In this document: positions 1 to 38,202 of the stretch, one piece after another | Layout of the letters: the number at the start of each line of letters is the position of its first letter | How positions within the stretch are numbered: position 1 is the stretch's first letter | DNA from: Candidatus Dormiibacterota bacterium | GTDB taxonomy: Bacteria > Chloroflexota > Dormibacteria > Aeolococcales > Aeolococcaceae | Assembly (NCBI GenBank): GCA_963754015.1 | Contig: CAVWEG010000004.1 | Coordinates: 262,455-326,454 of the forward strand | DNA length: 64,000 nucleotides | Direction: 5' to 3' | Notes under the pieces: model-generated | Databases searched by the model: none | The model's input: the letters and a program-made list of their open reading frames with translations, nothing else | What the model was told of the DNA's origin: nothing | Position numbers and translations under genes: made by a program

Positions 1-469
1 CAACTTTCGAGTCGGCGCCGCTTCGAAACCTTCTCCGGTTACCCAATCCCCAACTAACGAAGATCAGACGCGCTAAGCGGATATACCGCATTGGGAAAGC
101 GGTGTCGCAATACTGTCCGCGTCGCTGAAGCCGATGATGCTCCTGGCTAGAACGTTCCAGGCCTAACCGCGACAATGCTCAACCCGGCCGGCATCGTGAG
201 TGTGTCCAGATAACAGTTGCGGCCCCCGTGCTCCCTCGTCGGTTCGCCCTCCGCGTCCAAGTCCAGAAAGACCGAATCCGGCTTCTTCTCGCCCACAGCT
301 TCAAACTCAAAGTAGGCGGTGCCCACTTCTGATGAGCCTTTATCAACCCCGCCATGCGTCCTCCCCTACAAGCCGCCGCGGCAGCGAGGCATCGTGCCGA
401 GGAGAGCAGTAGGTGCCCCCGTTGTCGACATGACGCCCCGACGGTGAAGGCCCGAGGAACAAGGTCGCT

Positions 470-500
470 CTGGGTACATTCGCGGATGCTCGCCTGGGGG
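470..500 (+). repeat. Interspersed ~31-bp repeat, copy R1
   Basis: CTGGGTACATTCGCGGATGCTCGCCTGGGGG; matches consensus C(T/A)(G/A)GG(T/G)ACATTGGCGGATGCTGGCCTG seen 6-7 times in the first 3.7 kb. Confidence 0.8.
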
Positions 501-553
501 ACGCTCCTCACCCCAAGGACCGGCCATGGGCTTGGGAGGTAGGCTTCGGCCGC

Positions 554-961
554 ATGAGACGCAACGCAGCCTGCCGTGGGCGATGTTGTGCAGTTCTCTT
601 TGCCCGACGGGCGCTACGCCTGCTGCGTGATGCGTCTGTGGCTTTTTACCGAGTGACTACGCGGGAACCGGGCAAACCTCCGATCGGGAGTCGCGACTAC
701 CAGTTCGTAGTCGGTGTTTACGCCGACGTGCTTAGGTCAAAGGAAGTGCCGATCGTTGGCCGCGATCCGAGCACGGACGTTGATGACGAATGGCCGCCTC
801 CGTACTCGGTGCACCATCCACTAACAGCCCGGACGGACCGGTACGAGAGGGGCTCAATGCGCGGTGCTAAGGAGGACGAGACGCGTGGTCTTGAACCCGC
901 GGCGGCGTGGGACCTGAACCACCTGGTCGACCGACTGATGGGCGTTCAGCGGGGAAACTGA
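554..961 (+). pseudogene. Mini-cassette gene, immunity-protein-like, probably frameshifted near 620-640
   Basis: The ORF-track frame gives a plausible body (FYRVTTREPGKPPIGSRDYQFVVGVYADVLRSKEVPIVGRDP...AAWDLNHLVDRLMG). The expected N-terminal motif GDVVQFSLPDGRYACCVMR lies in another frame (about 583-655) and hits a stop. It resembles the 3214..3654 product. Confidence 0.35.
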
Positions 962-1002
962 TTTCACCTGGTCTTTTCGGCTGCGTTGGCAGCGCCCCGC
1001 AT

Positions 1003-1035
1003 CAAGGGACATTGGCGGATGCTGGCCTGCGCGAG
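1003..1035 (+). repeat. Interspersed ~31-bp repeat, copy R2
   Basis: CAAGGGACATTGGCGGATGCTGGCCTGCGCGAG; 533 bp after R1. Confidence 0.85.
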
Positions 1036-1557
1036 TCACCCGGTCGTCGATATCACCGTCCACTTTCCTGGGTTAATCCCGAAGAACGGCGCCTTGTATT
1101 CGATCGCGACAACTTGGCCATCGGGAACCTGGATCGTTATCGACAAGTCCCCGCCGCGAGAAAGGAAGTTCATCGGGTAATAGCATCGGACGACATGGCG
1201 GCCGGGCTTGAGGGGAATGAAGGAAGTGCCCCATCGCCGAACCACGGGAGAACCGCCATCGACCACGAGCCGGGCGTGTCGAAAGGTGTTGAGTTGCGTG
1301 CGACGGGTCGTGACCTTGATTCCCGTTGGGTGCGTCGTTGCTACCTTCGGGATCTGCTCGGATCCGTGGCTGAACTTCGCGACGAGAATCCGCTGGGCTT
1401 GTTGTTCGTCGTCCTCGGGACTAGGACGGTGGGTCCACCGGCTCCAGCGCGACGGCCTGCTCACGATTCGGAGCATACGCGCGACTGAACGGAGGGTAGC
1501 CTTGGACACAGCAAGTGCGAGCTGATCCGGCTGAGACGACCTTGGCTCTGGGTACAT
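1036..1557 (-). CDS. Hypothetical protein; only the C-terminal ~100 aa look convincingly coding
   Basis: C-terminal part HPTGIKVTTRRTQLNTFRHARLVVDGGSPVVRRWGTSFIPLKPGRHVVRCYY...APFFGINPGKWTVI looks like a real beta-rich domain. The N-terminal part reads through repeat R3 and is doubtful, so the true start is unknown. Confidence 0.35.
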   Translation of the reverse strand: MYPEPRSSQPDQLALAVSKATLRSVARMLRIVSRPSRWSRWTHRPSPEDDEQQAQRILVAKFSHGSEQIPKVATTHPTGIKVTTRRTQLNTFRHARLVVDGGSPVVRRWGTSFIPLKPGRHVVRCYYPMNFLSRGGDLSITIQVPDGQVVAIEYKAPFFGINPGKWTVISTTG

Positions 1558-1580
1558 TGACGGACGCTGGCCTGGCGAGC
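1548..1580 (+). repeat. Interspersed ~31-bp repeat, copy R3
   Basis: CTGGGTACATTGACGGACGCTGGCCTGGCGAGC; 545 bp after R2. Confidence 0.8.
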
Positions 1581-1695
1581 AGCGCTCTCGCTCGGGCAGC
1601 CGAGGCTAGCACCCTGCCGAGCTATCGGCCGGAGGTTCTGTGGAATCCAAGGTCCTTAGATGCAGTGGTTAGTACCTTGAGCGGATGATCTCGCC

Positions 1696-1914
1696 ATGCC
1701 GCTGGTCCGCGCTCCATCAGCACGGCGCGCACGCCGCGGCAGTATCGCTTTGATACTGCTCGCTATGCTCTTCGTTGCAATCGGCCTGTTCTGCATGATC
1801 GCGGGGGGACGTGTTCAGGCTGCGGGTGTTCCGAATCTCTCCGCCGGCGCGGTTCTGTGTGTGCTGGCGGGTGTCGCGTGGTTCTACGTTGCCCCGCGGG
1901 CATCTGGGCCGTGA
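1696..1914 (+). CDS. Small two-TM membrane protein (72 aa)
   Basis: Basic N-terminus followed by two hydrophobic helices (IALILLAMLFVAIGLFCMIAGG and AVLCVLAGVAWFYVA); sole occupant of the R3-R4 cassette. Confidence 0.4.
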   Translation: MPLVRAPSARRARRGSIALILLAMLFVAIGLFCMIAGGRVQAAGVPNLSAGAVLCVLAGVAWFYVAPRASGP

Positions 1915-2045
1915 GGGCACAGCCGCGCGCACGCAAGCACGCATGAGCCCTCACAGGGCGGACGTGTGACTGACGCGGGGCCGGGTGATTGTTGTCCGCC
2001 GGCTACGGGGTCGAGGTCGCAGATCGCTGATCGTTGATTCGCCCT

Positions 2046-2078
2046 CAAGGGACATTGCCGGATGCTGGCGTGGGCAAC
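2046..2078 (+). repeat. Interspersed ~31-bp repeat, copy R4
   Basis: CAAGGGACATTGCCGGATGCTGGCGTGGGCAAC; 498 bp after R3. Confidence 0.8.
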
Positions 2079-2131
2079 ACCAGTGCCCCCAGGCAGCACC
2101 TAACCGCCGCCGACCTTAAGCGGACAGCTCC

Positions 2132-2554
2132 TTGGCATACCGTCTGAAGTGTTCGAAATCGTGGCGCCACGGGATGAACCCGCGTGATGCGGAAGTTGCC
2201 ATCTGCAACACCATCGGACCTGAAAAGAAGAGGCGCGAGTGCTGTTCTGCTTCATCACGACTGCATGACCATGGTGATTCTCATCTGGCTGATGTTGCCG
2301 CCCGGCGCGCCGAAGTTGTTGATCGAAATCGTGGCCGTTGCAGCTTTCGTTGGAATCACGTATCTCCAGATGTTGGTGCGACGGAGTTTGGGCCGCTAAG
2401 GCAGCAACTCGGGCTGTACTTCGAACCCGAGGAGTATGAGGACGAAATTGCCGACGCGGCTCGGCAGTCATCAAACTTCGCAGCGGCGCTCCGGACGGTC
2501 TATCCAACTCCGAACGCGCTCTTGTTATGGGATCGCGTCGGCGCTGATGGATAG
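2132..2554 (+). CDS. Hypothetical cassette protein, possibly frameshifted
   Basis: Only the C-terminal part (GPLRQQLGLYFEPEEYEDEIADAARQSSNFAAALRTVYPTPNALLLW) looks coding. A TM-like segment sits in overlapping ORF 2184..2399 in another frame. Confidence 0.25.
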   Translation: MAYRLKCSKSWRHGMNPRDAEVAICNTIGPEKKRRECCSASSRLHDHGDSHLADVAARRAEVVDRNRGRCSFRWNHVSPDVGATEFGPLRQQLGLYFEPEEYEDEIADAARQSSNFAAALRTVYPTPNALLLWDRVGADG

Positions 2555-2580
2555 AGTTCGGCATCTCATCGCCGATGGTC

Positions 2581-2613
2581 GCTCCCCAGGCCTGCATCCG
2601 CCAATGTACCCAG
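2581..2613 (-). repeat. Interspersed ~31-bp repeat, copy R5 (inverted)
   Basis: Reverse complement reads CTGGGTACATTGGCGGATGCAGGCCTGGGGAGC; 535 bp after R4. Confidence 0.85.
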
Positions 2614-2647
2614 AACGAATCTCTCGCCTTGAAGGAAGCGAAGTGTC

Positions 2648-3094
2648 GTGTCTAGGATGGTCGAGGTGAGCGAAGTCACGACGAATTCCATCGATGCCAA
2701 CGGGCGGGAGATCGGCACCGTCCTCGAATGGTGGCGAGAACCAGCGACGTCTGGCGGCTCGCGCGGAGACTGTCGAGTTGACTGCCACGTCGTTGGTTTC
2801 AGCAACTTTACTGGTGCGGGTCCGGATTATTTCGAGGCGCTCCGTGAGGCAAGGCTCGCGATGGAGGACGCCGGCCTTCGGCCCTGCTGTGCTGGCGCGC
2901 GACGCGACACGTGGGCGTCCGGAATGCAGCGAGATATGGGTCAAGGCCTCACCTGCTACGTGCTCTCTTTTCCGCGTACAAAGGTCCGCCCTCCGGTACT
3001 CGGGACCTTCGATGCAGCCACACCAGATGTGATTGGCAGCGTTGCCGATCAGGAGGCTTTCCAGAAGGCTTGGATGGCCACCCCGCTAACCTGA
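2648..3094 (+). CDS. Hypothetical cassette protein (148 aa)
   Basis: Clean ORF filling the R5-R6 interval, starting 35 bp after R5 and ending 24 bp before R6; no recognisable family. Confidence 0.45.
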   Translation: MSRMVEVSEVTTNSIDANGREIGTVLEWWREPATSGGSRGDCRVDCHVVGFSNFTGAGPDYFEALREARLAMEDAGLRPCCAGARRDTWASGMQRDMGQGLTCYVLSFPRTKVRPPVLGTFDAATPDVIGSVADQEAFQKAWMATPLT

Positions 3095-3117
3095 GGAAGG
3101 GTCCGGAGCGGTTAAAC

Positions 3118-3150
3118 GTCGCGCAGGCCAGCATCCGCCAATGTACCTTG
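3118..3150 (-). repeat. Interspersed ~31-bp repeat, copy R6 (inverted)
   Basis: Reverse complement reads CAAGGTACATTGGCGGATGCTGGCCTGCGCGAC; 537 bp after R5. Confidence 0.85.
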
Positions 3151-3213
3151 GCGAAGGTCTGGGCGGCGGCGAAGGAGCGCGCGGCCGAAGTCCCGCATCA
3201 TCCTATCGAAGCC

Positions 3214-3654
3214 ATGACGAAACCAGGCAACAAGAAGAGCGCCAAAGCCAAGATCGGCGACATATTCAGGGTTCCCATCGCTCAGGAGGTCTGCGCTTAT
3301 GGGCAAGTCATCGGCCAGCAACAGCCGAGGACCTTTCTCGTCGTCATCTTTCGAGTGACCGATCGTGGAGCGGCCTCTATCGACGATGCGATAGAAAGCG
3401 GGTTCGATCTGGCTGGGATCGTGTTCGACGCGAAGTTGGCGAATGGTGATTGGCCGATATTAGAAGCGAGGCCGTCCGTGGCGATGCCACGTCTCTGGTT
3501 TGTGGATGGGCACCCTGACCTCGAGGGACTGCGCCTCACCAACTTCGATCGGACCGTTAGGCAACCACAAGAATCGCTTGGACGGCGGCACGCAGCCTGG
3601 GATGATGACTCACGTCGACCGAGCCACTGGTGCTGGCCCCCCAGCCGAGGGTGA
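3214..3654 (+). CDS. Immunity-protein-like cassette protein (Imm26-like pattern; family assignment from memory only)
   Basis: Internal ATG of ORF 2911..3654. Reads MTKPGNKKSAKAKIGDIFRVPIAQEVCAYGQVIG...GIVFDAKLANGDWPILEARP. The lysine-rich N-terminus, GD-hydrophobic-x-hydrophobic-P motif and later W-P-I motif are typical of small polymorphic-toxin immunity proteins. The C-terminal 40 aa look off-frame. Confidence 0.4.
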   Translation: MTKPGNKKSAKAKIGDIFRVPIAQEVCAYGQVIGQQQPRTFLVVIFRVTDRGAASIDDAIESGFDLAGIVFDAKLANGDWPILEARPSVAMPRLWFVDGHPDLEGLRLTNFDRTVRQPQESLGRRHAAWDDDSRRPSHWCWPPSRG

Positions 3655-3663
3655 CCTGCCTCC

Positions 3664-3694
3664 TATGTTATTGGCCACCGCTGGCCGTATTTGC
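3664..3694 (+). repeat. Possible degenerate copy R7 of the 31-bp repeat
   Basis: ATGTTATTGGCCACCGCTGGCCGTATTTGCG keeps the ATTGGC and CTGGCC blocks at the expected ~546-bp spacing; weak. Confidence 0.35.
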
Positions 3695-3819
3695 GGGAGT
3701 AATTCGAGGGTCTAGATTTTTCGATTTCCCATACCTTTGAGATGATCTCGGCCGCCGTCAGGATCTGTAGAAAGATAGGGTCTGCCTCCGGACCCTACGA
3801 CCCCCCGTCGACGGGTGCC

Positions 3820-4428
3820 TCAGCACGAATTGTCGACGGTATATCCAAAGTACGTTGGCATATATTGTCTAACGTAGTTGCCGCCCGACTGTAGCTCCAA
3901 CCAGTCGCCGCCAGATACGTAACCGACTGTCATACCATCGCAATTCGACCCGTTGTACATATCGACAGGGGGAGTTGATGTGTATACGTCAGTGGGACCA
4001 TTCTGGACGACGTTCGCGTATTGGCTGTATTCCCCTGTAATGCGACCATTATCCGAAGTCCAAGCGCACGGCCCGCAGTGGTTGAGGATGTCTGACTCGC
4101 CGTTGGCATTGTCAGTTGCCCACGACCAATTGGGCAGAAAGCTCTCAGAAGCGATGATCGTATATTTCGAGGTGACCGAAACATTGATTTCCGTTTCCGT
4201 GTCGCCGTAGTCATGTCCTGCCCATTGTGTACAGCCCGTCGAGCTAGGAATCCACCACACCTGAACAGACTGAGTTAGGTATTGACCGTTGCCGAGCGAG
4301 ACCTTTTGGCTTGCAGATGATACGTTGTAGTAACACGGAGTTGAAGCATGCGCGGTATATGGCAGCGCGAGGCCAACGGCCACGCTGACGAATGCCGCGG
4401 AACAGACTGCAATTAGCTTGCGCATCAC
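3820..4428 (-). CDS. Secreted cysteine-containing protein, paralog family A
   Basis: Signal peptide MMRKLIAVCSAAFVSVAVGLALPYTAHA/S, then TPCYY, GCTQWAGHDYGD and a C-terminal Cys (DNSC). Paralogs at 43629..44294 and 52529..53200. Confidence 0.8.
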   Translation of the reverse strand: MMRKLIAVCSAAFVSVAVGLALPYTAHASTPCYYNVSSASQKVSLGNGQYLTQSVQVWWIPSSTGCTQWAGHDYGDTETEINVSVTSKYTIIASESFLPNWSWATDNANGESDILNHCGPCAWTSDNGRITGEYSQYANVVQNGPTDVYTSTPPVDMYNGSNCDGMTVGYVSGGDWLELQSGGNYVRQYMPTYFGYTVDNSC

Positions 4429-4657
4429 TCGACTCCTTCCTTGGTCGCAACAACGGCCACTATGTGAACTTCAGATTGCTACCGGCATTGCCCGTTCGTG
4501 GGGACGTTTACATCTGTTCGCTAATCCGAGTCCAACCCGCGACTGGGCTTGACCCCGGAGGCGGATCCACAAGATGTCGGACACATTCCATCAGAACCAC
4601 TTCGATGACGCGACGGAGCGTCAGAAGTAAAGTAAGCGCATAAGAAATAAGTTGACC

Positions 4658-4673
4658 GTCAATTGTTGACAGT
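4658..4673. promoter_or_regulatory. 16-bp palindromic motif, site 1 (GTCAATTGTTGACAGT)
   Basis: Perfect GTCAA-TTG-TTGAC inverted repeat, 230 bp upstream of the minus-strand secreted-protein gene ending at 4428. Confidence 0.5.
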
Positions 4674-4870
4674 CGTCGCACCTTGAATTGCTATCTACGG
4701 CCCCATCCATGCCGGATTGCGAGCGCAGGCTCCTCACCCTCAGCGCGTTTATGACGGAGTTGCCCCTGTCAATGGTATCCCGACCAGAAGGTCGATCCAC
4801 CGCAAACGCCTCGGAGCCGAGACAGCAGCTCTGCAACACCTACCTGAACAGCCGCCTGATTCCGAAATGT

Positions 4871-5350
4871 CTACGGCCGGTTCGATGGCTTTGCGCCTCG
4901 CCTTCCTTCCCGCAACTGAGCCGATGACGACGGGCGACGACCAGGTGCGCGCTGTCGGCGTTGAATCTCCAGGCGCTCTTGGATATAGCTCTCGACTGCG
5001 GCGATCGGTACGAGCCTCCGGGCGCCGACGGTGAAGTACGGCAGGTCCCGCTGCAGAAGCTTATAGACGGTATTTCGCGACACTCCCAGAGCTGCGGCAA
5101 CATCGTCGACCCCTAAAGACAGGCGCACGCCCGAGACTCTGCGATCAGCCGATGGAGGCTCGTCCCCGGCGCTTGCCAGCTTCGAGCCCTCGCTCTCGAC
5201 ATCGCTCGCGCTAGTCACGATCAGCGACGTGTACCCGCGTTGACGCCAACAAGCACCCCACCTGATGCAGTGCCGGCGCGACCGTCTGCATTCCTTCGAC
5301 GCGCGCACGACTCGCCAAGTACTTCGATTGGAGTTCAAGTTGAATGTCAA
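4871..5350 (-). CDS. Excisionase/MerR-type helix-turn-helix DNA-binding protein (start uncertain, probably shorter)
   Basis: LSLGVDDVAAALGVSRNTVYKLLQRDLPYFTVGARRLVPIAAVESYIQERL matches the excisionase-family HTH pattern. Confidence 0.6.
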   Translation of the reverse strand: MTFNLNSNRSTWRVVRASKECRRSRRHCIRWGACWRQRGYTSLIVTSASDVESEGSKLASAGDEPPSADRRVSGVRLSLGVDDVAAALGVSRNTVYKLLQRDLPYFTVGARRLVPIAAVESYIQERLEIQRRQRAPGRRPSSSAQLREGRRGAKPSNRP

Positions 5351-5458
5351 CAGGCGGTCGCCGTGCTAACGCTGCAATGTCATCGGCGCAACTTCTCAGC
5401 GCCTCATCCGCTCGGCCGCTTTGGAGCTCACATCCTCCCGATCGGATTCGGGGCTGTT

Positions 5459-6145
5459 TCATGGAGAGCTGCTAGCTCGACCGAGTTGGTTGAGCAGGCT
5501 TTCGGCCAGATTCACAACCAACCGCCTCCCCGCCTGCTCCTCCATCCACCGTGCCGCACGAAGCTGCTGCGACACATTCTGCTTCGTGGTTCCCACTGTC
5601 TCTGCAATCAAGGCCTGACTCAGACCCGTCGATCGCAGCCTTGCAACCGCTTCCGCCGCCGGTAAGGCCTTCCGACTGTCGAAGAGCGCCTTCATTAACA
5701 GCAGCGCGGCTTCGAAGCTGCTCGCATCCATCCCCTCAGCAAGCACCCGCAGACCTCCGACACGACCACGCTTAGCCGCCGTGAGCGCTCGTCGCGCGAG
5801 CAGAAACGCACTCCCACGACTTTCGCGGACGCTCGCAGGTAGCGGCCTCTGTACAGAACCGATCCCCACCCCCACCCACCACTCCGCAGCCTCCAGCGCT
5901 CGCAGCGCGACCGCCGCTACCGTCTCTGCTTCGCGGATCAATCCTTCCACCTCGTCGCCGGCGGTCCGTTCGAACGGGAGCACAAACCGGAGCGACGCGT
6001 CGGCCCGTGTCTGATCCAGCCAGGCACCGACCATGTCTGGCCGCGCACGACTACGCCGTTGATCCAGGAGCACTGCCGCCAATGGCGGAACACCTACCTC
6101 GCCGAGCCACGTCACTACGCGCAGGGGTTGACTTCGCACAGTCAA
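5459..6145 (-). CDS. Putative DNA-binding regulator with C-terminal HTH (SatD-like pattern, uncertain)
   Basis: C-terminal LSQALIAETVGTTKQNVSQQLRAARW is an HTH; central TAGDEVEGL resembles the GDEFQG motif I associate with SatD-type proteins. Confidence 0.5.
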   Translation of the reverse strand: MTVRSQPLRVVTWLGEVGVPPLAAVLLDQRRSRARPDMVGAWLDQTRADASLRFVLPFERTAGDEVEGLIREAETVAAVALRALEAAEWWVGVGIGSVQRPLPASVRESRGSAFLLARRALTAAKRGRVGGLRVLAEGMDASSFEAALLLMKALFDSRKALPAAEAVARLRSTGLSQALIAETVGTTKQNVSQQLRAARWMEEQAGRRLVVNLAESLLNQLGRASSSP

Positions 6146-6203
6146 CCCCGAGGCATTGACGCGTCGAGAGATCCCATCAACCCCATCGTCGCGATCCCTG
6201 GTT

Positions 6204-7010
6204 TCACCAATCTATCACCGAAACCGATGCGAGCACATCGCTGCTCAGGACATCCAAATCCAACACAGCGCAGTGACCATTGGCGTGACTACCGGCGCCG
6301 CTGTCGCAGTTGAGGGAGACCACGCGCACCGCTTGCTCTTCGGCCCCGCGATGGAAGCGCTGATCGCTCGGGACATGCCAGTGGCCGTGCACCTGCAAGC
6401 TCGGTCGTACCGTGTACACGATGCGCTCAAGCGCCATGCGGTTCGCGTATACCGCGTTGCGCACCTGGAGCGGGAGGTCATCGAGATCGAAGTCAGCCCG
6501 GAGTTGCACATCGAGATTGATGTCATGGCTGAACAAGACGTCCGCTCGCCCAGGCGTAATGCAGGCCTCAAACTCGGCGCTGGTGATCGCCTCTTGCGGC
6601 CACCAGCTCCGCCGGGGAGTCCGATACATCACGTCAATCGAGCTCGCTCCGCCACACGCCAGCAGCGTCCTCCCCGCCCAGGTCCAGCGATGACCGCGCG
6701 GCAAATGCATGATGTGCGGGCGCACCGGACGCCGGCCTGCCGCATCAAGAGGAAGGGCATAGAGCTGCGCGACATCCTCGTGATTGCCGTCGATGAACCA
6801 GATCGGTATCCGCGTTGCCGCAGCCCTACGATCCAACGCGTCGAGATACCGCTTCCCGTCGAGATCCGGCCAGATCCCAAAATCACCCATCTGCAAAATC
6901 AGATCGCACTGCTGCCGTTTCGCCTGCGGAAAAACATGCGTCAGCATCCACTCGCCGTTGCCATGTACATCACCGGTCAGCAGAACTCGGCGCATCGCGG
7001 TCTTGGTCAT
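6204..7010 (-). CDS. Calcineurin-like metallophosphoesterase
   Basis: Motifs GDVHGN, MGDFG, DGNHED, SHD and VHGHWH in canonical order. Confidence 0.85.
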   Translation of the reverse strand: MTKTAMRRVLLTGDVHGNGEWMLTHVFPQAKRQQCDLILQMGDFGIWPDLDGKRYLDALDRRAAATRIPIWFIDGNHEDVAQLYALPLDAAGRRPVRPHIMHLPRGHRWTWAGRTLLACGGASSIDVMYRTPRRSWWPQEAITSAEFEACITPGRADVLFSHDINLDVQLRADFDLDDLPLQVRNAVYANRMALERIVYTVRPSLQVHGHWHVPSDQRFHRGAEEQAVRVVSLNCDSGAGSHANGHCAVLDLDVLSSDVLASVSVIDW

Positions 7011-7273
7011 TCGCCTGAATGCCAGAGCGCTGGTCCTTCGTGGACTCGAGCCTCCGTCTCAGGATGCATCCTTCCGGGAGGCGCCAGACGCGCAGCGTAG
7101 TGCTCCTCATCGGGCTCCGCATGCACCACCAGCGAGGGGCCGTCCTCGCCGGCAAACGTGATGGTGCACGCGGAGCCGGCTGGGAACCCTGCCAATTTGG
7201 CGAGCAGCGAGAGCAAATTGCGCTGACTAAGGGTGATCACGACCTTTTCGCGAGTCAGCAGATCAAGGCGCAC
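7007..7273 (-). CDS. Small conserved hypothetical protein, TLSxRNLLxLLAKL family, copy 1
   Basis: VVITLSQRNLLSLLAKLAGFPAGSACTITFAGEDGPSLVVHAEPDEEHY; 4-nt ATGA overlap with the phosphoesterase gene; paralogs at 7305..7610 and 51882..52298. Confidence 0.6.
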   Translation of the reverse strand: MRLDLLTREKVVITLSQRNLLSLLAKLAGFPAGSACTITFAGEDGPSLVVHAEPDEEHYAARLAPPGRMHPETEARVHEGPALWHSGE

Positions 7274-8191: not shown

Positions 8192-8557
8192 ATGGACCTA
8201 CCTGCCGGTCTGGGCCCAATGCTGCGCCAGCTTCGGCGCTCCAAAGGAGCCACGGTCAAGGAGCTTGCCCAAACCGCAGACGTCTCGCCCTCCTATCTCT
8301 TCCGCCTCGAGCGCGGCGAGGCACCGAACCCCTCGATCGCATTGCTGCGACGATTGGCCGCCGCTCTTGAAGTTCAGGTGGAGACGCTAACCGAGGCCGG
8401 ACGCGCCCCTGCGCCAAGCGGCGATGCGGCGCTTGCCAATGAGATCGCCGCCGGAGTCCGTACTCTCAGTCACGACGATCTCGAACTCATCCGAGAAGTG
8501 GTACGCCTTCTCCTCCGAAGGTCTCGACGCCAGCGCTTGCCGACGACGCCAGAGTGA
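8192..8557 (+). CDS. XRE-family helix-turn-helix transcriptional regulator
   Basis: LRQLRRSKGATVKELAQTADVSPSYLFRLERGEAPNPSIALLRRLAAALEV is a canonical HTH_3 motif; divergent from the 8093 operon. Confidence 0.8.
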   Translation: MDLPAGLGPMLRQLRRSKGATVKELAQTADVSPSYLFRLERGEAPNPSIALLRRLAAALEVQVETLTEAGRAPAPSGDAALANEIAAGVRTLSHDDLELIREVVRLLLRRSRRQRLPTTPE

Positions 8558-14994: not shown

Positions 14995-16167
14995 ATGTCA
15001 CCTGAGTTCAAACCATCGCGTCTCGTCTTAGCTCGTGAGAGACGGGGTATGACCAAGGCCACCCTAGCGGCAAGCGCTGGCGTCACCATTCGAAGCATCA
15101 CGAACTACGAAGGTGGCTATCATTACCCGGCCGCGACAACTCTTCATCGGCTAGCCTCTGCACTGGATTTCCCTCCAGGTTTCTTCCTAGGCCCAGACCT
15201 GCAGCCGGCTCCCATCGAGGCCGCGAGCTTCCGTGCCCTCAAGAACCTCACCGCACGGCGACGGGATCAAGCGAAGGCTTCTGCCACATTCGCACTCGCT
15301 CTCAGCAGGTGGATCGACAAGCGATTTAAGCTGCCGCCACCAAGCATTCCTCGTCTCAGTTATCTCGCTTCCCCGGAGATCGGCGCCGAGGTCGTCCGAC
15401 GCGATTGGGGAATCGGCGAGAGGCCCATCACCAACGTGATCCATCTTTTGGAATCCCATGGCGTTCGAGTGTTCTCGCTTGTTGAGGAGTGCGCGGAACT
15501 GAATGCGTTCTCTCTGTGGATTGAGGACGTCCCGTATATCTTCCTCAACACCATGAAGTCGGCTGAGAACAGCCGCATGGATGCCGCGCACGAACTCGGG
15601 CATCTAGTCATGCACTGGGAGCACGGATCATCGATTGGACGGGACAAGGAACGCGATGCCCAAGCATTCGGCGCAGCGTTCCTGATGCCGCGCGGCAGTA
15701 TTCTAGCGAATGCGCCTAGGACAGGGCACCTGACAGAGATCAATCGTGCGAAGCTCATTTGGAAGGTATCGTTGGCGAGTTTAGTCTTCCGTCTTCACGC
15801 ACTGGGCTTGTTGTCCGATTGGCAATATCGCAGTGCGTTCATCGAACTGTCGAGCCTCGGCTATCGTCGGGCAGAGGCCGACGGGATTCCGCGAGAAACT
15901 TCGCAGGTGCTCACCAAAGTATTCGATGCCCTGCGATCTGAAAACGTGTCGAAGTCAGACTTGGCGGAAGAGCTGGCAATTCCGGTCGAGGAACTCAATC
16001 GTGTCGTCTTTGGACTGTCACTAACCACGCTTCGAGGAACTGAATACGCTACCGGTGCATCGCGGTCGTCGCCGCCACTTCGCGTAGTGAATTCGTCAAA
16101 GGGCGCTGCTGATATTCGCGATCCATCGGTAGTTCCAACAGACCTTGCATCCCACCCATCGGCCTGA
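14995..16167 (+). CDS. XRE HTH fused to ImmA/IrrE-family (DUF955) zinc metallopeptidase
   Basis: N-terminal RERRGMTKATLAASAGVTIRSITNYEGGYHYPAATTLHRLASAL (HTH_3); central AAHELGHLVMH HEXXH motif followed by AQAFGAAFLMP. Confidence 0.85.
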   Translation: MSPEFKPSRLVLARERRGMTKATLAASAGVTIRSITNYEGGYHYPAATTLHRLASALDFPPGFFLGPDLQPAPIEAASFRALKNLTARRRDQAKASATFALALSRWIDKRFKLPPPSIPRLSYLASPEIGAEVVRRDWGIGERPITNVIHLLESHGVRVFSLVEECAELNAFSLWIEDVPYIFLNTMKSAENSRMDAAHELGHLVMHWEHGSSIGRDKERDAQAFGAAFLMPRGSILANAPRTGHLTEINRAKLIWKVSLASLVFRLHALGLLSDWQYRSAFIELSSLGYRRAEADGIPRETSQVLTKVFDALRSENVSKSDLAEELAIPVEELNRVVFGLSLTTLRGTEYATGASRSSPPLRVVNSSKGAADIRDPSVVPTDLASHPSA

Positions 16168-32406: not shown

Positions 32407-35400
32407 CTATCCTCCTCCGATGAGCCAGCGAATATACGCTCGAGTCACATCGGCGATCACCGTGACAACAGTCCCTCCAGGGACCTTTCCGACAAAAATA
32501 CCCGAACGCGAATCAAAGTAGCCTGTCCTCAACTCGCCGCTGGCCGGATCATTATATGCAAATGGAGTGCGTGTCATGGCTGCGTCCACCTGAGCTTGAC
32601 TAATGCCTCGGTCGGCCATTTGCTGCGCCGCATGTGACGAGAGATCACATTCGGTGTCGTTGTGGACAAGAACATCGGAGCCGGCAATCCCGATGAAAAA
32701 GTCGTGATCTCTGTTAACTGTGAGGTCATACATCCACCCAGTCCCCGCCACAGACGTGAGTTGCACGACCGTCGCTAGCTGACCATTTGCGGTGAGTAAC
32801 TGGTCACCGATACGAAGATTGAACGCCGGCGTCCAGCTATGCGATGTGACATCCCAGAAGAGGTGATTGGCGGTGGAGTGCACCGTTGACCGCGCCGTTG
32901 TCGTGAGCACCGTGATGTCCATCAGATCGGCATCATCGTGAAGCCATAGAGCCGTGACGGTTTCAGACTGGATCTTCCCAGTCGCAGGATCGGTGGCCAT
33001 GACCTGGTCACCGGCCAACACTTGGCTGATAGGGATCGTGCTGCCGTCCGCCAGGAGCACCTCCGTGCCAGCCGAGAAACTCTCTCCGCCGCACATCGTC
33101 GGAGTGCCAGCGTCGTCACCGATATCTCCAGCTTCCCCGTCGGCTGAGGTCAGGGCATCCCAAGCTGCCGTAGCTCCCTCGTCGGCCGGCAAAAGGGCGT
33201 CAATAGCCGCCCCCACCCACTCGAACAACTCGGCACCTACGAAGCCCTCAGCACAAGCCACCGCCGCATTGACAAATGCGTCGCCCCAGTTGACCTTCCG
33301 TCCGCTCAGCACGTCGGCGATATCCGGGACAAGGCTAATTACAGCACCGACCGCACATCCCTCGAGAAGGAATTGTCCCGTCGGATCCGTGATGTCCACA
33401 GGGTCGCCCGCGGCATACGAGTACAGATCAGTACTTCTGCCGTTGAACCCGAGCGGGTCCTGGCTAATGAAACGAGCCTCGGATGGGCTGTAATACCGAG
33501 CTTGGTCGTAGTCCAACCCAGTGCCGTCATTCTGCTGCCCGACAAACTCGAATGGATTCGCACTGCTCGTTCCGTTCGTCGACGCGTTGCCATATGGATC
33601 GTAGGTGTACGTGGTCGGCACCGCCCCCGACGAGTTCCCCAACCCCACCGTGGTCCCCAACGAATCAGTCAGCAGTGACGACGTCCCGGTGCCGTCGGTG
33701 CGGGAGAATACCTCGTCGAGCCCTTGTCCGGTGAGCGTGCTGGCGGTCACGGTCCCTCCAACCAGGTTCTCGAGCACATTGCCGCCGTCCGTCAGGTAAT
33801 CCGTGGTCAAACCGCCTACAGTCGACGACTGACGTACTCCGAACGGGTCATAGCTGTACGTCGCATTGCTTACTCCGCTTATACCCGTCAGCTGTCCCCG
33901 ATCGTTCCAGCTGTACGTGTTGCTCGGATCGCTGGTCAGATTTCCATCGTTGTTGTAGTGCAGCGTCGATCCGTTCTGACTCGCGAGCTCGTTGTCAGCG
34001 TTATACGTCCACGTCGATGTCGTCGCCGTCGGCAGTGCGACCTGCGAGAGTGTCCCGCCGACGGAGGTACGTTGCCCATCCCCGTCGTACCCATACGTCA
34101 ATGTGCCCACCGTGGTCGAGCCCGATGTGTCGGTTATGCCGGTCACCTGGCTGGCAGCGTCGTAGCCGTACGTCTCAACAATTCCGTCAGGCAGTGTGAC
34201 CGTGCTGGGGCGCAGGTCCGCGTCTGGCACGATGCTAACACTCTGCGAACTGGTGCTTTCACCTGTCAGCGCCCCGGCGGCGTCGTAGCCGTACGTAACC
34301 ATTGAGCCGCTTGATGGTGTCATCGTGTGTCGGTTACCGTCCGCGTCATACGCGTAAGCGACCGATCCTTCGGGACCGCTATCAGAGGTGAGGCGATCGA
34401 ACCTGTCGTATCCGAGAGTGTAGGTGCCTGACGCTGAGTCCACGATTCCGGTGAGCCTGTTCCCTAGGTCATAGCTGTCACTGATCTTCGATTGCTGCGT
34501 TGTAGGTCCCGTAACTCCATAGCGAGCCGTCGCCAGGCGGTTCATCGGGTCATAGGTGAACTTGTCCACCGCCCCGTTCCCGTCCGTGACCTGCACAATG
34601 TTGCCGAGACCGTCATACACGTACGAAGTCGTGTTCGTCAGCGCGTCCGCAACGCTCCCTGCCTGATCCATGTCGTTCGGGCTCACGGTGGTCAGGTTGG
34701 TGTCTGGGTCTTCGACTAAGGTGACGTCGCCGTTAGGATTGTAGGTGTACTGCGTGGTGTCGCCCAACGCGTCTTCCACCGCGGTGACTTGGTTCATCGC
34801 ATCGACGGTGTACTGCGTGGTATTCCCATCGGGGTCCGTCGACTGCAGAACTCGCCCGCCGGCATCAACGTACTGCGTGGATACATTGCCGTCCGGATCG
34901 GCTACCGCCACCAAGTCGCCGTTGAGATAGCTGTAGTAGGTCACATTCCCAAGCGGATCCGTGACCGAGGTCGGCTCACCGTTCTGGGTGGTAGTGATCG
35001 TCTGGTTCCCGAGCGCATCAGTCGCGGTGATGACGCCGACTCCGCCACTGTCGTCTTGGTACCCAATGGTGCTGGTGTTGGTCAGCGGGTCTTCGACTGA
35101 TGCGAGTTGGTGGGATATGGGTTCGTACGTGAAGGTAGTCGTCTCGGCCGACGCGGTTCCGTACATCATCGTGATGGTCAGGACACCTCCATACGCGTCG
35201 TACGTGTAGTGCGCGTCACGACCCAACTGGTCGACGGCGTCGGTGACCTGATGCGTGGTCCCGTCCAACGTATATGTCGTTTCCTCTTGATCGGCAGTGC
35301 CCGATGCATCGGTGGTTGAGGTGAGATGTCCAGAGCTATCGAATGTCGAGACGCTTACATTGCTGTCTGGATCCGTCACAGTGGTCGCAGTGACGCTCGA

Positions 35401-38199
35401 GCCGCTGAGCGTGTAGTTGAACTGGTAGGTACCGGAGTCCGCGTCTGTCTGCAGATGGACGCGTCCATTTGCGTCGTACATCGTTTGGATCCACGTATCT
35501 AGCGTTGGGTCCTCTATAGACGCGATCTGCGTACAGGCGAGGTCGCCACCAGTGCACGTGCCCCAGTTGTACATCGTTGTCTTGGTAGCTGCATCCTCAA
35601 CGGACGTCAACCGCCCCGCGCCATCGTAGCCATACTCGACGCTTCGGCCCGTGTTGTCCGCGGCTTGCGTAATGCATGACGCCGGGTCCATCCCGGTCAC
35701 GCAACTACCCCATGTAAACGCGATCCAACGGCCGTCAGGCGAAGTCACCTGCTCTAGCTCGGAATTGGTCGCGTTCCGCTCTACACTGATTGAATTCCCA
35801 TACTCATCCGTGATCCCGGTGAGTGACGGATGGTACGTCCCGAACTGGTACTGAGTTCCATTGGGCATGGTGACGATGAGATCACTGTCGACAATCTCGT
35901 CAAGGGTGGCACCCGCATAGCTCGTTGAACCCGTAGCGTCATAGATATAGCTTGTCCCAGAGGGAGCAAAGGTCACGTCAGCCCCATCCGGCATTTGCAG
36001 GTCGTAGTTGCCGCTCGAATCGGGCGACACGAACATATCGAGGTTGTCGCTCTGGCTGTACCCGAATGCGCGTAGCTCTGGATCGCCCTGGCGGTATGAG
36101 CGGGTGACTGAGATGGGAAGGATGTCTGGCAATTCGAGATCGGTGTGGGTGCTATTCCAATTCCCGCTTTCGAGGTCCACAGGATCGCCGGCGGCGAGCA
36201 GGCTATCGACTAGTGGACAGAAGAGTCCGAGGATCGACCCCGCGAGTACGGTGCACAGCGGGTCCGACGAGATCGAATAGGACTCGATGTACTTGAGACG
36301 CAGGGTCGCCGGAGGGACGATATGCGCTGCATCCGCGCTGACCCTTCCCACCCCATACGCGTACCAGCCGGTGCCGTTCTTTGAGGCATCGTTGTCATCA
36401 AATTGGTAGTACGACCCCGGGCGCGCCTGCGTCAGGTTCGGGTAGATGATCTGGAGTCCAGGCCCGGCCACCACGCTGGCGTCCGACGGCTGCAATGTGT
36501 AGAAGAAGGACATGCCTGGGGCCAACGGAAGAGGCGTCCGCGTCAGCGGTGTCTCCGTCAACGAAAGCTGGTGAACGACCTTTCCATAGTGGTCGCGTAT
36601 CACTGTTCCTTTGGGAATCACGACTTGAAGCCCCGGAATCGCCGGCGATGAGTACACGATCTGCTTGGTCGTCGGCGACGCTATGGTGATCGCGTTAGCC
36701 AGATCGAGGGCCGGTAACCACACCGTCCATGGCAGCACCGCTGTGACGTGTGCCGTGACAACCACGCCTTCCTCGTAGGCGCCGTGATTTATGCTGTCGG
36801 TCGGCTCTGTGGCGTCGATCCACAGTTCCTGATGCCCCGCGGCGACCCCGGTCAAGAGAAAACGTCCCTGGCTGTCTGTCGTCGTTAGCTTCTTCCCAAT
36901 AGAGACGGACACACCCTGCAGCGGGAGCGAGTTCACATCTTCGATGACCCCAGCGAGCGCTGTAACGCTCTTCGCGGCCTGTAGCGGCGCAACCTCGGAC
37001 GCACGTCCCGAGCTGATCGGCGCGGGCGTCTCAGCCGCGACGAACACCTGGCTCAGCTCGGCATTCGCCGAAGAACTCACCGATCCCGCTGGCGTCACCA
37101 GAGTGACCGTGCCCGGGAGCGTTCCCCGCGGTACTCGACCGCTCAGCCTTGTCGAGGTCGCCGACACCACGTCGACATCTGTCGCGCCAACTCGAAGGCG
37201 GTCCAGTCCACTACTGCTTGCAAAGTGCGCACCTGTGACCGTGAGGGTGATCCGCGATCCACTCGTGGCTGCGCTGACAGCGCTGATCGTCGGGGCCTGA
37301 GCGGCGGTTTTATTGCTACCCGCACGGTGCATCAGACCACCGGTCGTTCTGCTGATGGAGAGTAGGTTGCCGGCGGCGTCGTAGTTGTATGTAGCCGTGC
37401 CTGCCGCGGTCGTCACTGTCGAGAGACGACCGGCGGCGTCATAGGTATACGTCGCCCCAGTTCCCACTACCGTGAACGTGGCCACGATGTCGCCCCACTC
37501 AACTGCGGTGGACAGGGTGGCGCCATATGACTGCGAGCCTGTGCTACTCGTGACCTGGTAGGCGCTCTGAACGTTGTTCAGGAGACTGGTCGGCGTCGAC
37601 TGATGCGCGCTGTTGTGCGTGTACCCGGCCGTCTGCGCAGAGATCGTTGGCCCAGAGTTCCACCCGATCCCGGCCACCACTAACTCGATTGCCTGCGCTG
37701 TCGCGCTCGTTGAACCACTGCTCGGTGCCGTGCCGCTGCTCGAACTCGCTCCTGCATCCACGCCCAGCGGGGTCGTCGGACTGACTCCCGCGAACTCCTG
37801 CACCGATTCCACGATCGTTGCCGACGCACTCGCATGTACCGTCACCGAAGACACCGCTGACGCGTCCGCCGCGTAGAACATGCCGGTCACGTTGGTGCCC
37901 GACGCCTTGGTCAAGACGGTGGCGAAAGTGTCCCCCGCCGAGTCAGTCACCGCAGGCGAGCCGAAGCTGCTCACACCCCGCAGACTCGCAGTGACGACGA
38001 GCAGGTCCCCGGCTGAGCTCGTGATTGTCGCCACGAGCGTCGCGGACTGGGTCGTCTCGGTGGCTCCAACCTCTTGCACCTGGGCGATCCCTGATGCCTT
38101 GACTGCCGACGCGCCGGATGCGAAGAAACTCACAGTTACGACCGAGGCCGCCGCGATCGCGCTGCCGAGAGCCCGCCAACGCCGCTTCTGCCTTTGCAT
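32407..38199 (-). CDS. Rhs/YD-repeat polymorphic toxin (1930 aa): signal peptide, shared N-domain, IPT/TIG-like and CarboxypepD_reg-like domains, YD-repeat shell, Hint domain, C-terminal toxin
   Basis: Dozens of YD repeats (YTYDAAGRL, YGYDGAGRL and others). Shell-plug motif DPVDLESGNWNSTHTDLELP. Core end YDQARYYSPSEARFISQDPLG...GDPVDITDPTGQ. Hint domain and short variable C-terminus. Confidence 0.95.
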   Translation of the reverse strand: MQRQKRRWRALGSAIAAASVVTVSFFASGASAVKASGIAQVQEVGATETTQSATLVATITSSAGDLLVVTASLRGVSSFGSPAVTDSAGDTFATVLTKASGTNVTGMFYAADASAVSSVTVHASASATIVESVQEFAGVSPTTPLGVDAGASSSSGTAPSSGSTSATAQAIELVVAGIGWNSGPTISAQTAGYTHNSAHQSTPTSLLNNVQSAYQVTSSTGSQSYGATLSTAVEWGDIVATFTVVGTGATYTYDAAGRLSTVTTAAGTATYNYDAAGNLLSISRTTGGLMHRAGSNKTAAQAPTISAVSAATSGSRITLTVTGAHFASSSGLDRLRVGATDVDVVSATSTRLSGRVPRGTLPGTVTLVTPAGSVSSSANAELSQVFVAAETPAPISSGRASEVAPLQAAKSVTALAGVIEDVNSLPLQGVSVSIGKKLTTTDSQGRFLLTGVAAGHQELWIDATEPTDSINHGAYEEGVVVTAHVTAVLPWTVWLPALDLANAITIASPTTKQIVYSSPAIPGLQVVIPKGTVIRDHYGKVVHQLSLTETPLTRTPLPLAPGMSFFYTLQPSDASVVAGPGLQIIYPNLTQARPGSYYQFDDNDASKNGTGWYAYGVGRVSADAAHIVPPATLRLKYIESYSISSDPLCTVLAGSILGLFCPLVDSLLAAGDPVDLESGNWNSTHTDLELPDILPISVTRSYRQGDPELRAFGYSQSDNLDMFVSPDSSGNYDLQMPDGADVTFAPSGTSYIYDATGSTSYAGATLDEIVDSDLIVTMPNGTQYQFGTYHPSLTGITDEYGNSISVERNATNSELEQVTSPDGRWIAFTWGSCVTGMDPASCITQAADNTGRSVEYGYDGAGRLTSVEDAATKTTMYNWGTCTGGDLACTQIASIEDPTLDTWIQTMYDANGRVHLQTDADSGTYQFNYTLSGSSVTATTVTDPDSNVSVSTFDSSGHLTSTTDASGTADQEETTYTLDGTTHQVTDAVDQLGRDAHYTYDAYGGVLTITMMYGTASAETTTFTYEPISHQLASVEDPLTNTSTIGYQDDSGGVGVITATDALGNQTITTTQNGEPTSVTDPLGNVTYYSYLNGDLVAVADPDGNVSTQYVDAGGRVLQSTDPDGNTTQYTVDAMNQVTAVEDALGDTTQYTYNPNGDVTLVEDPDTNLTTVSPNDMDQAGSVADALTNTTSYVYDGLGNIVQVTDGNGAVDKFTYDPMNRLATARYGVTGPTTQQSKISDSYDLGNRLTGIVDSASGTYTLGYDRFDRLTSDSGPEGSVAYAYDADGNRHTMTPSSGSMVTYGYDAAGALTGESTSSQSVSIVPDADLRPSTVTLPDGIVETYGYDAASQVTGITDTSGSTTVGTLTYGYDGDGQRTSVGGTLSQVALPTATTSTWTYNADNELASQNGSTLHYNNDGNLTSDPSNTYSWNDRGQLTGISGVSNATYSYDPFGVRQSSTVGGLTTDYLTDGGNVLENLVGGTVTASTLTGQGLDEVFSRTDGTGTSSLLTDSLGTTVGLGNSSGAVPTTYTYDPYGNASTNGTSSANPFEFVGQQNDGTGLDYDQARYYSPSEARFISQDPLGFNGRSTDLYSYAAGDPVDITDPTGQFLLEGCAVGAVISLVPDIADVLSGRKVNWGDAFVNAAVACAEGFVGAELFEWVGAAIDALLPADEGATAAWDALTSADGEAGDIGDDAGTPTMCGGESFSAGTEVLLADGSTIPISQVLAGDQVMATDPATGKIQSETVTALWLHDDADLMDITVLTTTARSTVHSTANHLFWDVTSHSWTPAFNLRIGDQLLTANGQLATVVQLTSVAGTGWMYDLTVNRDHDFFIGIAGSDVLVHNDTECDLSSHAAQQMADRGISQAQVDAAMTRTPFAYNDPASGELRTGYFDSRSGIFVGKVPGGTVVTVIADVTRAYIRWLIGGG
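32410..32658 (-). other. C-terminal toxin domain of Rhs (83 aa), DUF4258-like
   Basis: LSSHAAQQMADRGISQAQVDAAM resembles the H-A-x-x-R-M-x-x-R-G-I start of DUF4258, a family classically paired with DUF2283. Confidence 0.6.
32659..33093 (-). other. Hint (pre-toxin HINT) domain of Rhs (145 aa)
   Basis: Starts CGGESFSAGTEVLLADGSTIPISQV and ends DFFIGIAGSDVLVHN, the Cys1 and terminal HN signatures of Hint/intein-fold domains. Confidence 0.85.
37450..38090 (-). repeat. Shared N-terminal domain module (Rhs copy)
   Basis: About 79% aa identity by hand count over ~207 aa to 41860..42500, with long identical DNA runs such as CTGATGCGCGCTGTTGTGCGTGTACCC. Confidence 0.85.
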
Positions 38200-38202
38200 C
38201 GC

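Follow-up and report, generated by a model that had tools for sequence, protein, structure and literature searches.

Cassette-bounding repeats of Candidatus Dormibacterota as probable attachment-site arms of a large serine recombinase

Near the left end of a 64-kb stretch of DNA from a Candidatus Dormibacterota genome (hereafter the window), short gene-like units of about half a kilobase are separated by copies of one repeat. A preliminary description, made from the letters of this stretch, suggested that the repeats could be the module boundaries of a cassette-shuffling system served by a site-specific recombinase encoded elsewhere, or else a regulatory or RNA element. Integrons are the textbook case of gene-cassette capture, which is tied there to one tyrosine recombinase and to folded attC sites. 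What, then, is the element repeated in this locus, and which enzyme would act on it? From a comparison of the window with related loci in genomes and metagenomes, we consider it likely that the repeat is the attP-type left arm of the attachment site of a large serine recombinase (LSR) of about 466 aa, which would mobilise cassettes in Dormibacterota.

A 24-nt core, GGKACATTGGCGGATGCTGGCCTG, is found six times in the window, each time with at most two mismatches, compared with 0 matches in 100 shuffles. Four copies lie on the forward strand and two are inverted (Table 1), with start-to-start spacings of 533, 545, 498, 538 and 537 bp, in agreement with those reported previously. In an alignment of these copies the conserved stretch is about 35 nt long and the flanks are unalignable. 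The preliminary description had counted seven copies: six are borne out, where none is expected, whereas the forward, degenerate seventh one near 3664 finds no support: it matches 13 of the 24 core positions and is missed both by a profile built from 64 copies and by the short-form pattern described below. Apart from the six, no copy exists in the 64 kb, as had been stated.

A degenerate pattern covering all six copies was then searched in bacterial and archaeal genomes (one per species) and in metagenome and viral contigs. It matched 117 metagenome contigs and 47 genome stretches, 44 of which come from metagenome-assembled genomes (MAGs) of Candidatus Dormibacterota, in 27 assemblies corresponding to 27 species-level genomes. 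A phage origin was considered and set aside, as the viral contigs gave no match. These 47 stretches and 117 contigs were the loci searched first; the set comprised 166 loci when copies were counted and 184 later. By scanning the loci and the window with a profile we found 397 copies in 166 loci, with a core of roughly 29 nt; single loci hold, for example, 10 (L030), 14 (L036) or 11 (L142) copies, and several arrays are present per genome. The motif is thus not scattered at random through genomes: its copies cluster in oriented arrays. Orientation is uniform within each of the 165 loci other than the window, with one weak exception, and the spacing is mostly 0.3-1.9 kb (median gap 730 bp, 5th to 95th percentile 306-1800 bp, in 76 inter-repeat intervals outside the window). 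The mixed orientation noticed earlier is therefore real in the window but is not a general trait, and the period of about 535 bp is not a property of the element; both are accidents of one locus. The taxonomic specificity of the motif, together with the cassette 97% identical to one of L011 (see below), makes a Dormibacterota origin of the window most likely.

Comparison of the loci between species showed that cassettes are shared exactly from repeat to repeat, as expected if the repeats are module boundaries. The window segment 2587-3150 is 97.3% identical to L011 4399-4961, and 2587-3147 shares 75.6% identity with L108 1164-1725; each of the two matches extends exactly between repeats, beyond which the flanks are unrelated. 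At this site (site 5), the flank 5′ of the core in the orientation of the site, at higher coordinates, is common with L011 and the 3′ flank is not. Homology was also observed between 1017-1470 and L078 (72.6% identity) and between 2432-2613 and L024 6245-6426 (77.6%). An all-against-all comparison of the loci revealed many more shared cassettes, 75-98% identical, whose alignments stop at the repeat cores and which occur in different species beside unrelated neighbours. In tight cassette families the orientation of the gene is fixed relative to the site.

The position of the crossover was mapped, with a resolution of 2-3 nt, by pooling independent pairs of sites that share one flank. In 59 pairs sharing only the upstream flank, the variable core positions 2, 8, 9, 18 and 21 stay linked to that flank: their mismatch is 0.03-0.25, where the background is 0.37-0.61. 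At +24 the mismatch jumps to background and homology ends. In 41 pairs sharing only the downstream flank, the core is at background and homology begins at +24. The linkage up to position 21 and the switch at +24 therefore place the junction between core positions 21 and 24 (..GCC-TG|), around an invariant TG. The crossover is thus fixed, and the whole core is part of the 3′ end of the upstream cassette. Homologous exchange would be expected to scatter crossovers along the core; the observed pattern is the signature of site-specific exchange.

We looked for the enzyme beside the arrays. In the loci searched first, protein clustering and Pfam scans gave only IS110 transposases and one phage-type tyrosine integrase, about 3 kb away from the array in L037. 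A 247-aa protein recurring next to the repeat was examined as a candidate and discarded, as it is a secreted protein. By following a cassette protein into longer contigs, we reached a 20.7-kb stretch (L171) where an ABC transporter and a PHP-domain gene flank an array. Its first unit after the flank encodes a 466-aa LSR with Resolvase, Recombinase and zinc-ribbon domains, together with a REP_ORF2-G2P / RepSA-like protein, that is a rolling-circle-type Rep. Such LSR-Rep first units measure 3.4-4.3 kb. The syntenic loci L172 and L173 lack the unit and have an attB-type head (see below), and the point from which they are homologous to L171 is exactly the junction. The LSR belongs to a large family, a member of which heads the array in six independent loci (L171, L175-180, L181/182, L183, L184, whose LSR is 61% identical, and L019), flanked by different genes: ABC transporter and PHP-domain genes, a NACHT-TPR gene, and others. 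No recombinase is encoded in the window, so that the suggestion of an enzyme located outside it stands, with a cognate-looking LSR at the array heads of these six other loci.

The order at these heads is the following: flank, short-form left arm, TG, NNCCAGGATACGCTAATGTACCYTG, ATG of the LSR, Rep, canonical core, and then array sites in the same orientation. In all six loci the ATG of the LSR comes 25 nt after the ..TG|, and the intervening NNCCAGGATACGCTAATGTACCYTG is an inverted copy of the canonical core. Among 184 loci, the LSR-adjacent 18-mer was found only beside LSR genes. Since a canonical core forms the end of the element and an inverted copy abuts the start of the LSR, the repeat appears to be the element's own attP arm and not merely its target. 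In L019, a Dormibacterota MAG in GTDB, the LSR (2752-4343) is broken up into four frames or more, either because the recombinase has decayed or because the long-read assembly contains indel errors.

The full site is about 50 bp long. Its left arm is made of a distal motif, CTC-NR-GGKACA, a 5-nt linker and a proximal motif, GGATGCTSGCC, followed by the central TG. When the two ends of the L171 element are joined, they reconstruct a dyad-symmetric attP centred on the TG, AGCCGCTGGGTACATTGGCGGATGCTCGCC-TG-CACCAGGATACGCTAATGTACCTTGATGCC, in which 18 of 25 positions are symmetric; conservation of the P′ arm extends to all six LSR loci. Nine head sites were aligned with the canonical core, and every one of them shows a single gap of exactly 5 nt, between the distal and the proximal motifs. 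An IUPAC search of the loci with the short-form pattern gave six head sites in addition to these nine (L029, L034, L049, L078, L079 and L110), each located upstream of all the canonical sites of its locus and beside larger chromosomal genes. In LSR attB sites the motif bound by the zinc-ribbon domain is 5 bp nearer to the centre than in attP (Rutherford et al., PMC3783163); following this rule, we assign attB-type arms to the heads and attP-type arms to the array cores. One and the same cassette start comes after a B arm in L079 but after a P arm in L004, and the joint falls at the identical TG in both.

On the right side, the mirrored proximal and distal motifs were scored 3′ of 312 array sites. 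The proximal motif peaks at +24 and the distal one at +35, not at +40; +35 is the best offset in 104 of the 312 sites, against about 6 expected. The position of the distal motif thus points to array joints of the form P-TG-B′, that is of the attR type, and the head of L172 reads B-TG-B′, which is the attB type. Taken together, the features of an LSR attachment site can all be read in the sequences: a central dinucleotide, two inverted attP arms, the 5-bp shift and an adjacent LSR, the last of these in six related loci and not inside the window. We therefore regard the window repeats as probable attR-type joints of mini-cassettes mobilised by the LSR.

The window itself consists of two arrays placed tail to tail, sites 1-4 on the forward strand and sites 6-5 on the reverse strand, which meet in 2073-2586 and delimit three and two complete cassettes, respectively (Table 1). 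Site 4 closes the forward sub-array and site 5 the inverted one. The head of the left array lies beyond the start of the window, where exact-protein look-ups yielded nothing more than a 3-kb contig, and the recombinase outside the 64 kb. The upstream boundary of the cassette ending in core 6, where the head of the inverted sub-array was expected (about 3660-3800), gave no recognisable head site; the half-site found there has a score in the top 0.1% of positions, which is not significant, and coincides in part with the seventh copy previously proposed, but on the opposite strand. The central TG is not palindromic; from what is known of this dinucleotide's role, inversion of either array with respect to its partner could not have been the work of the LSR, and nothing supports the shuffling of cassettes by inversion.

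Table 1. Positions of the junction sites and of the cassettes that they bound in the window
Feature	Position	Strand	Details
Junction site 1	468..518	+	P-type left arm and core 468-494 (24-nt core from 473); central TG 495-496; profile score 41
Junction site 1, right arm	497-518	+	Degenerate, B′-type
Cassette ending in core 2	497..1029	+	533 bp; open reading frame (ORF) 554-961
Junction site 2	1001..1051	+	Core 1006-1029, 0 mismatches; central TG 1028-1029
Cassette ending in core 3	1030..1574	+	545 bp; gene on the - strand within 1036-1557 by codon-usage score
Junction site 3	1546..1596	+	Core 1551-1574; central TG 1573-1574; mirrored distal motif positive at +35
Cassette ending in core 4	1575..2072	+	498 bp; small membrane-protein ORF 1696-1914 (+)
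Junction site 4	2044..2094	+	Core 2049-2072; central TG 2071-2072; distal motif at +35 = +4.2 bits
Meeting segment of the two opposed sub-array tails	2073..2586	.	2432-2586 homologous to a post-site cassette start in L024
Junction site 5	2565..2615	-	Inverted; core 2587-2610; central TG on the - strand at 2588-2587
Cassette with a 148-aa gene	2587..3123	-	537 bp; gene 2648-3094 (+, antisense to the site)
Junction site 6	3102..3152	-	Inverted; core 3124-3147, 0 mismatches; central TG on the - strand at 3125-3124
Cassette ending in core 6	3124..3660	-	Imm26 gene 3214-3654 (+), Pfam match (E = 2.6e-5) that clears the family cut-off
Degenerate half-site of the head type, doubtful (..GGTCACCCTCGGC TG)	3642..3667	-	Short-form matrix 1.1 bits

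How could such arrays be built? We infer that the LSR catalyses the movement of the cassettes, by a route of pick-up and drop-off. In this reading, a cassette extends from just after one TG to the next TG and carries its own P arm at its 3′ end, and an array starts at a chromosomal attB-type site, whose left arm is that of the cassettes less 5 nt. Some genomes have the LSR-Rep element directly behind the head; this element has its own attP, P-TG-P′, and would integrate at the head by attP x attB recombination. Since every downstream joint is of the attR type, excision through the element's attL and any of these joints would take away a variable number of cassettes, on a circle provided with a valid attP. 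This circle could re-integrate elsewhere, and subsequent excision of the element alone would leave the cassettes behind. In such a scheme, cassettes devoid of recombinase would pile up in one orientation, in arrays headed by attB or attL, and would be transferred between genomes. Alternatively, a less directional LSR could exchange cassettes directly by attR x attR recombination.

Several points weigh against this interpretation. The whole evidence base is comparative sequence from MAGs and metagenome contigs, and most arrays are seen as pieces of at most 8 kb without a recombinase. Neither an LSR nor an attB-type head was found in the window, which is linked to the LSR through the homology of its sites and through nothing else. 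The right arms are weak, with the best distal match at +35 in only a third of the array sites and, in the window, positive distal scores at sites 3 and 4 only; moreover, behind several LSR elements the first P site matches poorly (scores of 11-16). As to the route, recombination between two attR sites is a non-canonical reaction for an LSR, no excision factor, which the pick-up and drop-off model needs, was identified, and the model leaves unexplained how a gene first acquired a P arm.

Two further observations concern the repeat itself. Many metagenome contigs (e.g. L053, L054, L063, L072, L097 and L118) stop within tens of bases of a repeat copy, which suggests that the repeat breaks short-read assemblies and that arrays are therefore under-represented in MAGs. 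In L038, L066, L068, L070, L129 and L157, a solitary site lies exactly 58 nt 3′ of the conserved gene for the 247-aa secreted protein, in a syntenic chromosomal context with HAD-like and methyltransferase-like neighbours and no array; this copy could be either a remnant or a site that is not used.

The core is also occupied by other elements. We observed insertion sequences of the IS110 family (DEDD_Tnp_IS110 and Transposase_20 domains) inside the core, between GGTAC and ATT, in L026 (about 572-1909), L039 (about 4594-5940 and 6011-7209) and L181 (14410 and 14928), with junctions of the form ..CTA GGTAC|TGGCATGATG..IS..GGAGCATC|ATTTGCGGATGC... These elements appear to target the core specifically, which recalls the IS1111-attC group, whose members target the attC sites of integrons.

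These insertions raise the question whether the LSR elements, too, could be secondary settlers landing on an abundant repeat, in arrays built by another recombinase or another process. The IS110-family elements do parasitise the same core, most arrays are seen without an LSR, and canonical LSRs do not recombine attR with attR. We nevertheless judge this unlikely, as the canonical core is the right end of the LSR element itself and its inverted copy abuts the LSR start codon. The 5-nt offset between attP and attB is specific to LSRs, the mirrored attB-type right arm at +24/+35 belongs to the same geometry, and both also hold at joints and heads with no LSR nearby; in addition, no tyrosine or other recombinase recurs near the arrays. 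It is much less probable that the repeat is the site of a regulator or nucleoid protein, or a promoter-like element, with a mosaicism due to homologous recombination at short identical stretches. A conserved stretch of about 29 nt could support short-patch homologous exchange, and the family that recurs most often in the loci is that of the ECF (extracytoplasmic function) sigma genes, but the crossovers are not spread along the core: positions up to 21 follow the upstream flank, with a sharp switch at 22-24. The site has, besides, the two arms and the central dinucleotide by which recombinase sites are built, and it is not polar with respect to genes. The genes next to 66 copies are spread about evenly over the four possible arrangements (20, 19, 14 and 13), which confirms the lack of a consistent orientation already remarked upon and led us to reject a promoter, a terminator or a leader. 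By-eye comparison with consensus sequences gave no match to sigma-54, ECF, dif or Xer sites. The regulatory or RNA element formerly proposed as an alternative finds no more support on the RNA side, as Rfam has no match in the window. The DNA folds of the six copies, on both strands, are mutually inconsistent and no more stable than those of shuffles (z-scores of about 0 or above), so that a hairpin, attC-like or REP-like structure was also rejected; the absence of a shared structure agrees with the repeat having been described as not obviously palindromic. Nor is it a conserved coding segment, which had already been thought improbable: no frame is open through the motif, the frame reading 'GTLADAGL' meets stops within a few codons in several copies, and around 99 copies from many genomes no open frame extends beyond about 30 codons on either side, in either direction.

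The preliminary description had held the element to be unlike CRISPR, integron attC arrays and scattered repetitive extragenic palindromic (REP) sequences, and we reached the same conclusion for all three. CRISPR spacers measure about 25-70 bp, whereas the intervals here are of 0.3-1.9 kb and contain genes. The resemblance to integrons is closer: a recombinase platform at the head, a uniformly oriented array of small cassettes, a site at the 3′ end of each cassette with the crossover at its 3′ edge, a cargo of GNAT acetyltransferases, immunity proteins and unknowns typical of integrons, and IS110-family elements that target the cassette site (a likeness to the IS1111-attC group). An integron, or a tyrosine-recombinase system like rAID-1, with sites unusually conserved in this lineage would account for all this, but we find this very improbable, a little more so than a regulator site. 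The enzyme of integrons is the tyrosine recombinase IntI, acting on single-stranded attC hairpins which are conserved in structure and not in sequence; here the site is double-stranded and conserved in sequence, it forms no hairpin, and the RYYYAAC and GTTRRRY boxes are absent. No IntI-like or XerD-like gene is adjacent to the arrays, the integrase of L037 being of the phage type and about 3 kb off, and the recombinase at the array heads is a serine recombinase. The array of small cassettes in one orientation is thus a functional resemblance only. Least probable of all, in our opinion, is a selfish repeat spread through intergenic regions, similar to REP sequences and bacterial interspersed mosaic elements (BIMEs) or to miniature inverted-repeat transposable elements (MITEs). 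The element is short, intergenic, multi-copy and lineage-specific, as these are; however, it is not palindromic, has no terminal inverted repeats or target-site duplications, and forms clustered, uniformly oriented arrays instead of a scatter, with a core that stays tied, in different species, to the cassette upstream of it. We saw no transposase of the REP-associated kind.

The preferred reading, that of attachment-site arms of an LSR, can be compared with known systems. The enzymes of A118/LI, Bxb1 and phiC31 have the same Resolvase, Recombinase and zinc-ribbon domains and act on sites of about 50 bp, with the crossover at a non-palindromic central dinucleotide; as in Dormibacterota, the dyad-symmetric attP adjoins the recombinase gene and the distal motif of attB is 5 bp closer to the centre (PMC3783163). 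Known LSR systems have one attP on the phage or element and one attB in the host, whereas in Dormibacterota dozens of attR-type joints bound recombinase-free cassettes of 0.3-2 kb. The composite islands of the staphylococcal cassette chromosome (SCC, SCCmec) are a mechanistic parallel. There, Ccr large serine recombinases act on tandem modules lying between direct-repeat att sites, modules without ccr such as ACME (a mobile element of arginine catabolism) are mobilised in trans, and single modules or composites excise (PMC7029739). SCC differs by its unique site at the 3′ end of rlmH, its few modules of 10-60 kb and its repeats of 15 bp; the Dormibacterota arrays are multiple, hold many single-gene cassettes, have a conserved arm of about 29 nt and belong to another phylum. 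In function, the Dormibacterota arrays also resemble the rAID-1 clusters of Bacteroidales, in which orphan immunity genes are arrayed together with repetitive intergenic sequences and an associated recombinase, and which were described as integron-like (bioRxiv 10.1101/471110). Their recombinase is a tyrosine recombinase of the XerD family, in another phylum again, and the cargo of the Dormibacterota arrays is broader than immunity genes. A further comparison can be made with a plasmid system, from which the repeat departs in having no dif-like similarity. The pdif modules of Acinetobacter plasmids are small gene modules bounded by recombinase sites, the enzyme being encoded elsewhere, and these sites are dif-like, recognised by XerC/XerD and alternating in orientation.

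The content of the cassettes was also inspected. In 93 cassette ORFs we identified GNAT acetyltransferases (6 ORFs), WapI and Imm26 immunity proteins, and L-PSP, GyrI-like, redoxin, methyltransferase and pentapeptide proteins, the remainder being mostly unknowns; another array carries Imm74 and CdiI_2. The ECF sigma genes, with 23 members in 22 of 166 loci in or around the arrays, are an unusual cargo for a cassette system. They often have an adjacent presumed anti-sigma gene, e.g. in L024 (4237-5689) and L172 (6246-8044). In the window, the ORF of the cassette ending in core 2 is accompanied by an Imm26-like N-terminus in another frame (GDVVQFSLPDGRYACCV, 570-655). Pfam support for it is weak (Imm26 E = 0.044, which falls short of the family cut-off), and either a frameshift in an immunity gene or a sequencing error could explain it. 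Distant homologues of the 148-aa cassette protein occur in L166 and L170, outside any such array. In these repeat-free loci, proteins with HTH_17, an excisionase-type helix-turn-helix (HTH), are encoded near the homologues (L166 6299-6664, L170 2976-3734), and in L166 about 5 tandem copies of a repeat of 21-nt period (CTCGCGTACTCCTCGCGTACT..., 6815-6932) adjoin the HTH_17 gene. An HTH_17 ORF is also present in the window at 4871-5350 (-), about 1.2 kb past the inverted sub-array.

Farther along the window, two very large ORFs of 1930 and 1473 aa occupy the reverse strand at 32407-42624, and matches to RHS-repeat (RHS toxin), DUF6531, PT-HINT, Laminin_G/fn3, Imm35 and Fic were found elsewhere, which points to a polymorphic-toxin and competition island some 30 kb away from the arrays of cassettes. 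The window also has several Cro/C1-type HTH genes (8192-8557, 14995-16167 and others) and three Peptidase_M78 (ImmA/IrrE-like) proteins, a set typical of the regulatory modules of mobile elements, and a match to an IS1595-type transposase.

We see about an even chance that Dormibacterota hold a serine-recombinase counterpart of the integron, which would be a chromosomal platform for gene capture, consisting of an attB head, an optional LSR-Rep shuttle and an array of attR-type joints. Whether single-gene cassettes are stockpiled in this way and exchanged between species, by an independently evolved second cassette system, seems to us equally balanced. No description of such a system was found in open-access papers or in bioRxiv. 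If the reading is true, an integron-like array logic would have arisen on LSR chemistry in an uncultured soil phylum, as a case of convergent cassette stockpiling. It would explain how Dormibacterota exchange immunity, acetyltransferase and sigma-factor genes, provide a sequence tag for harvesting their accessory genes from metagenomes, and contribute a natural LSR whose attP- and attB-type arms are defined; the recombination of attR-type sites would bear on the directionality rules used in genome engineering. There is a substantial chance that these arrays deserve the name of a distinct class of cassette system.

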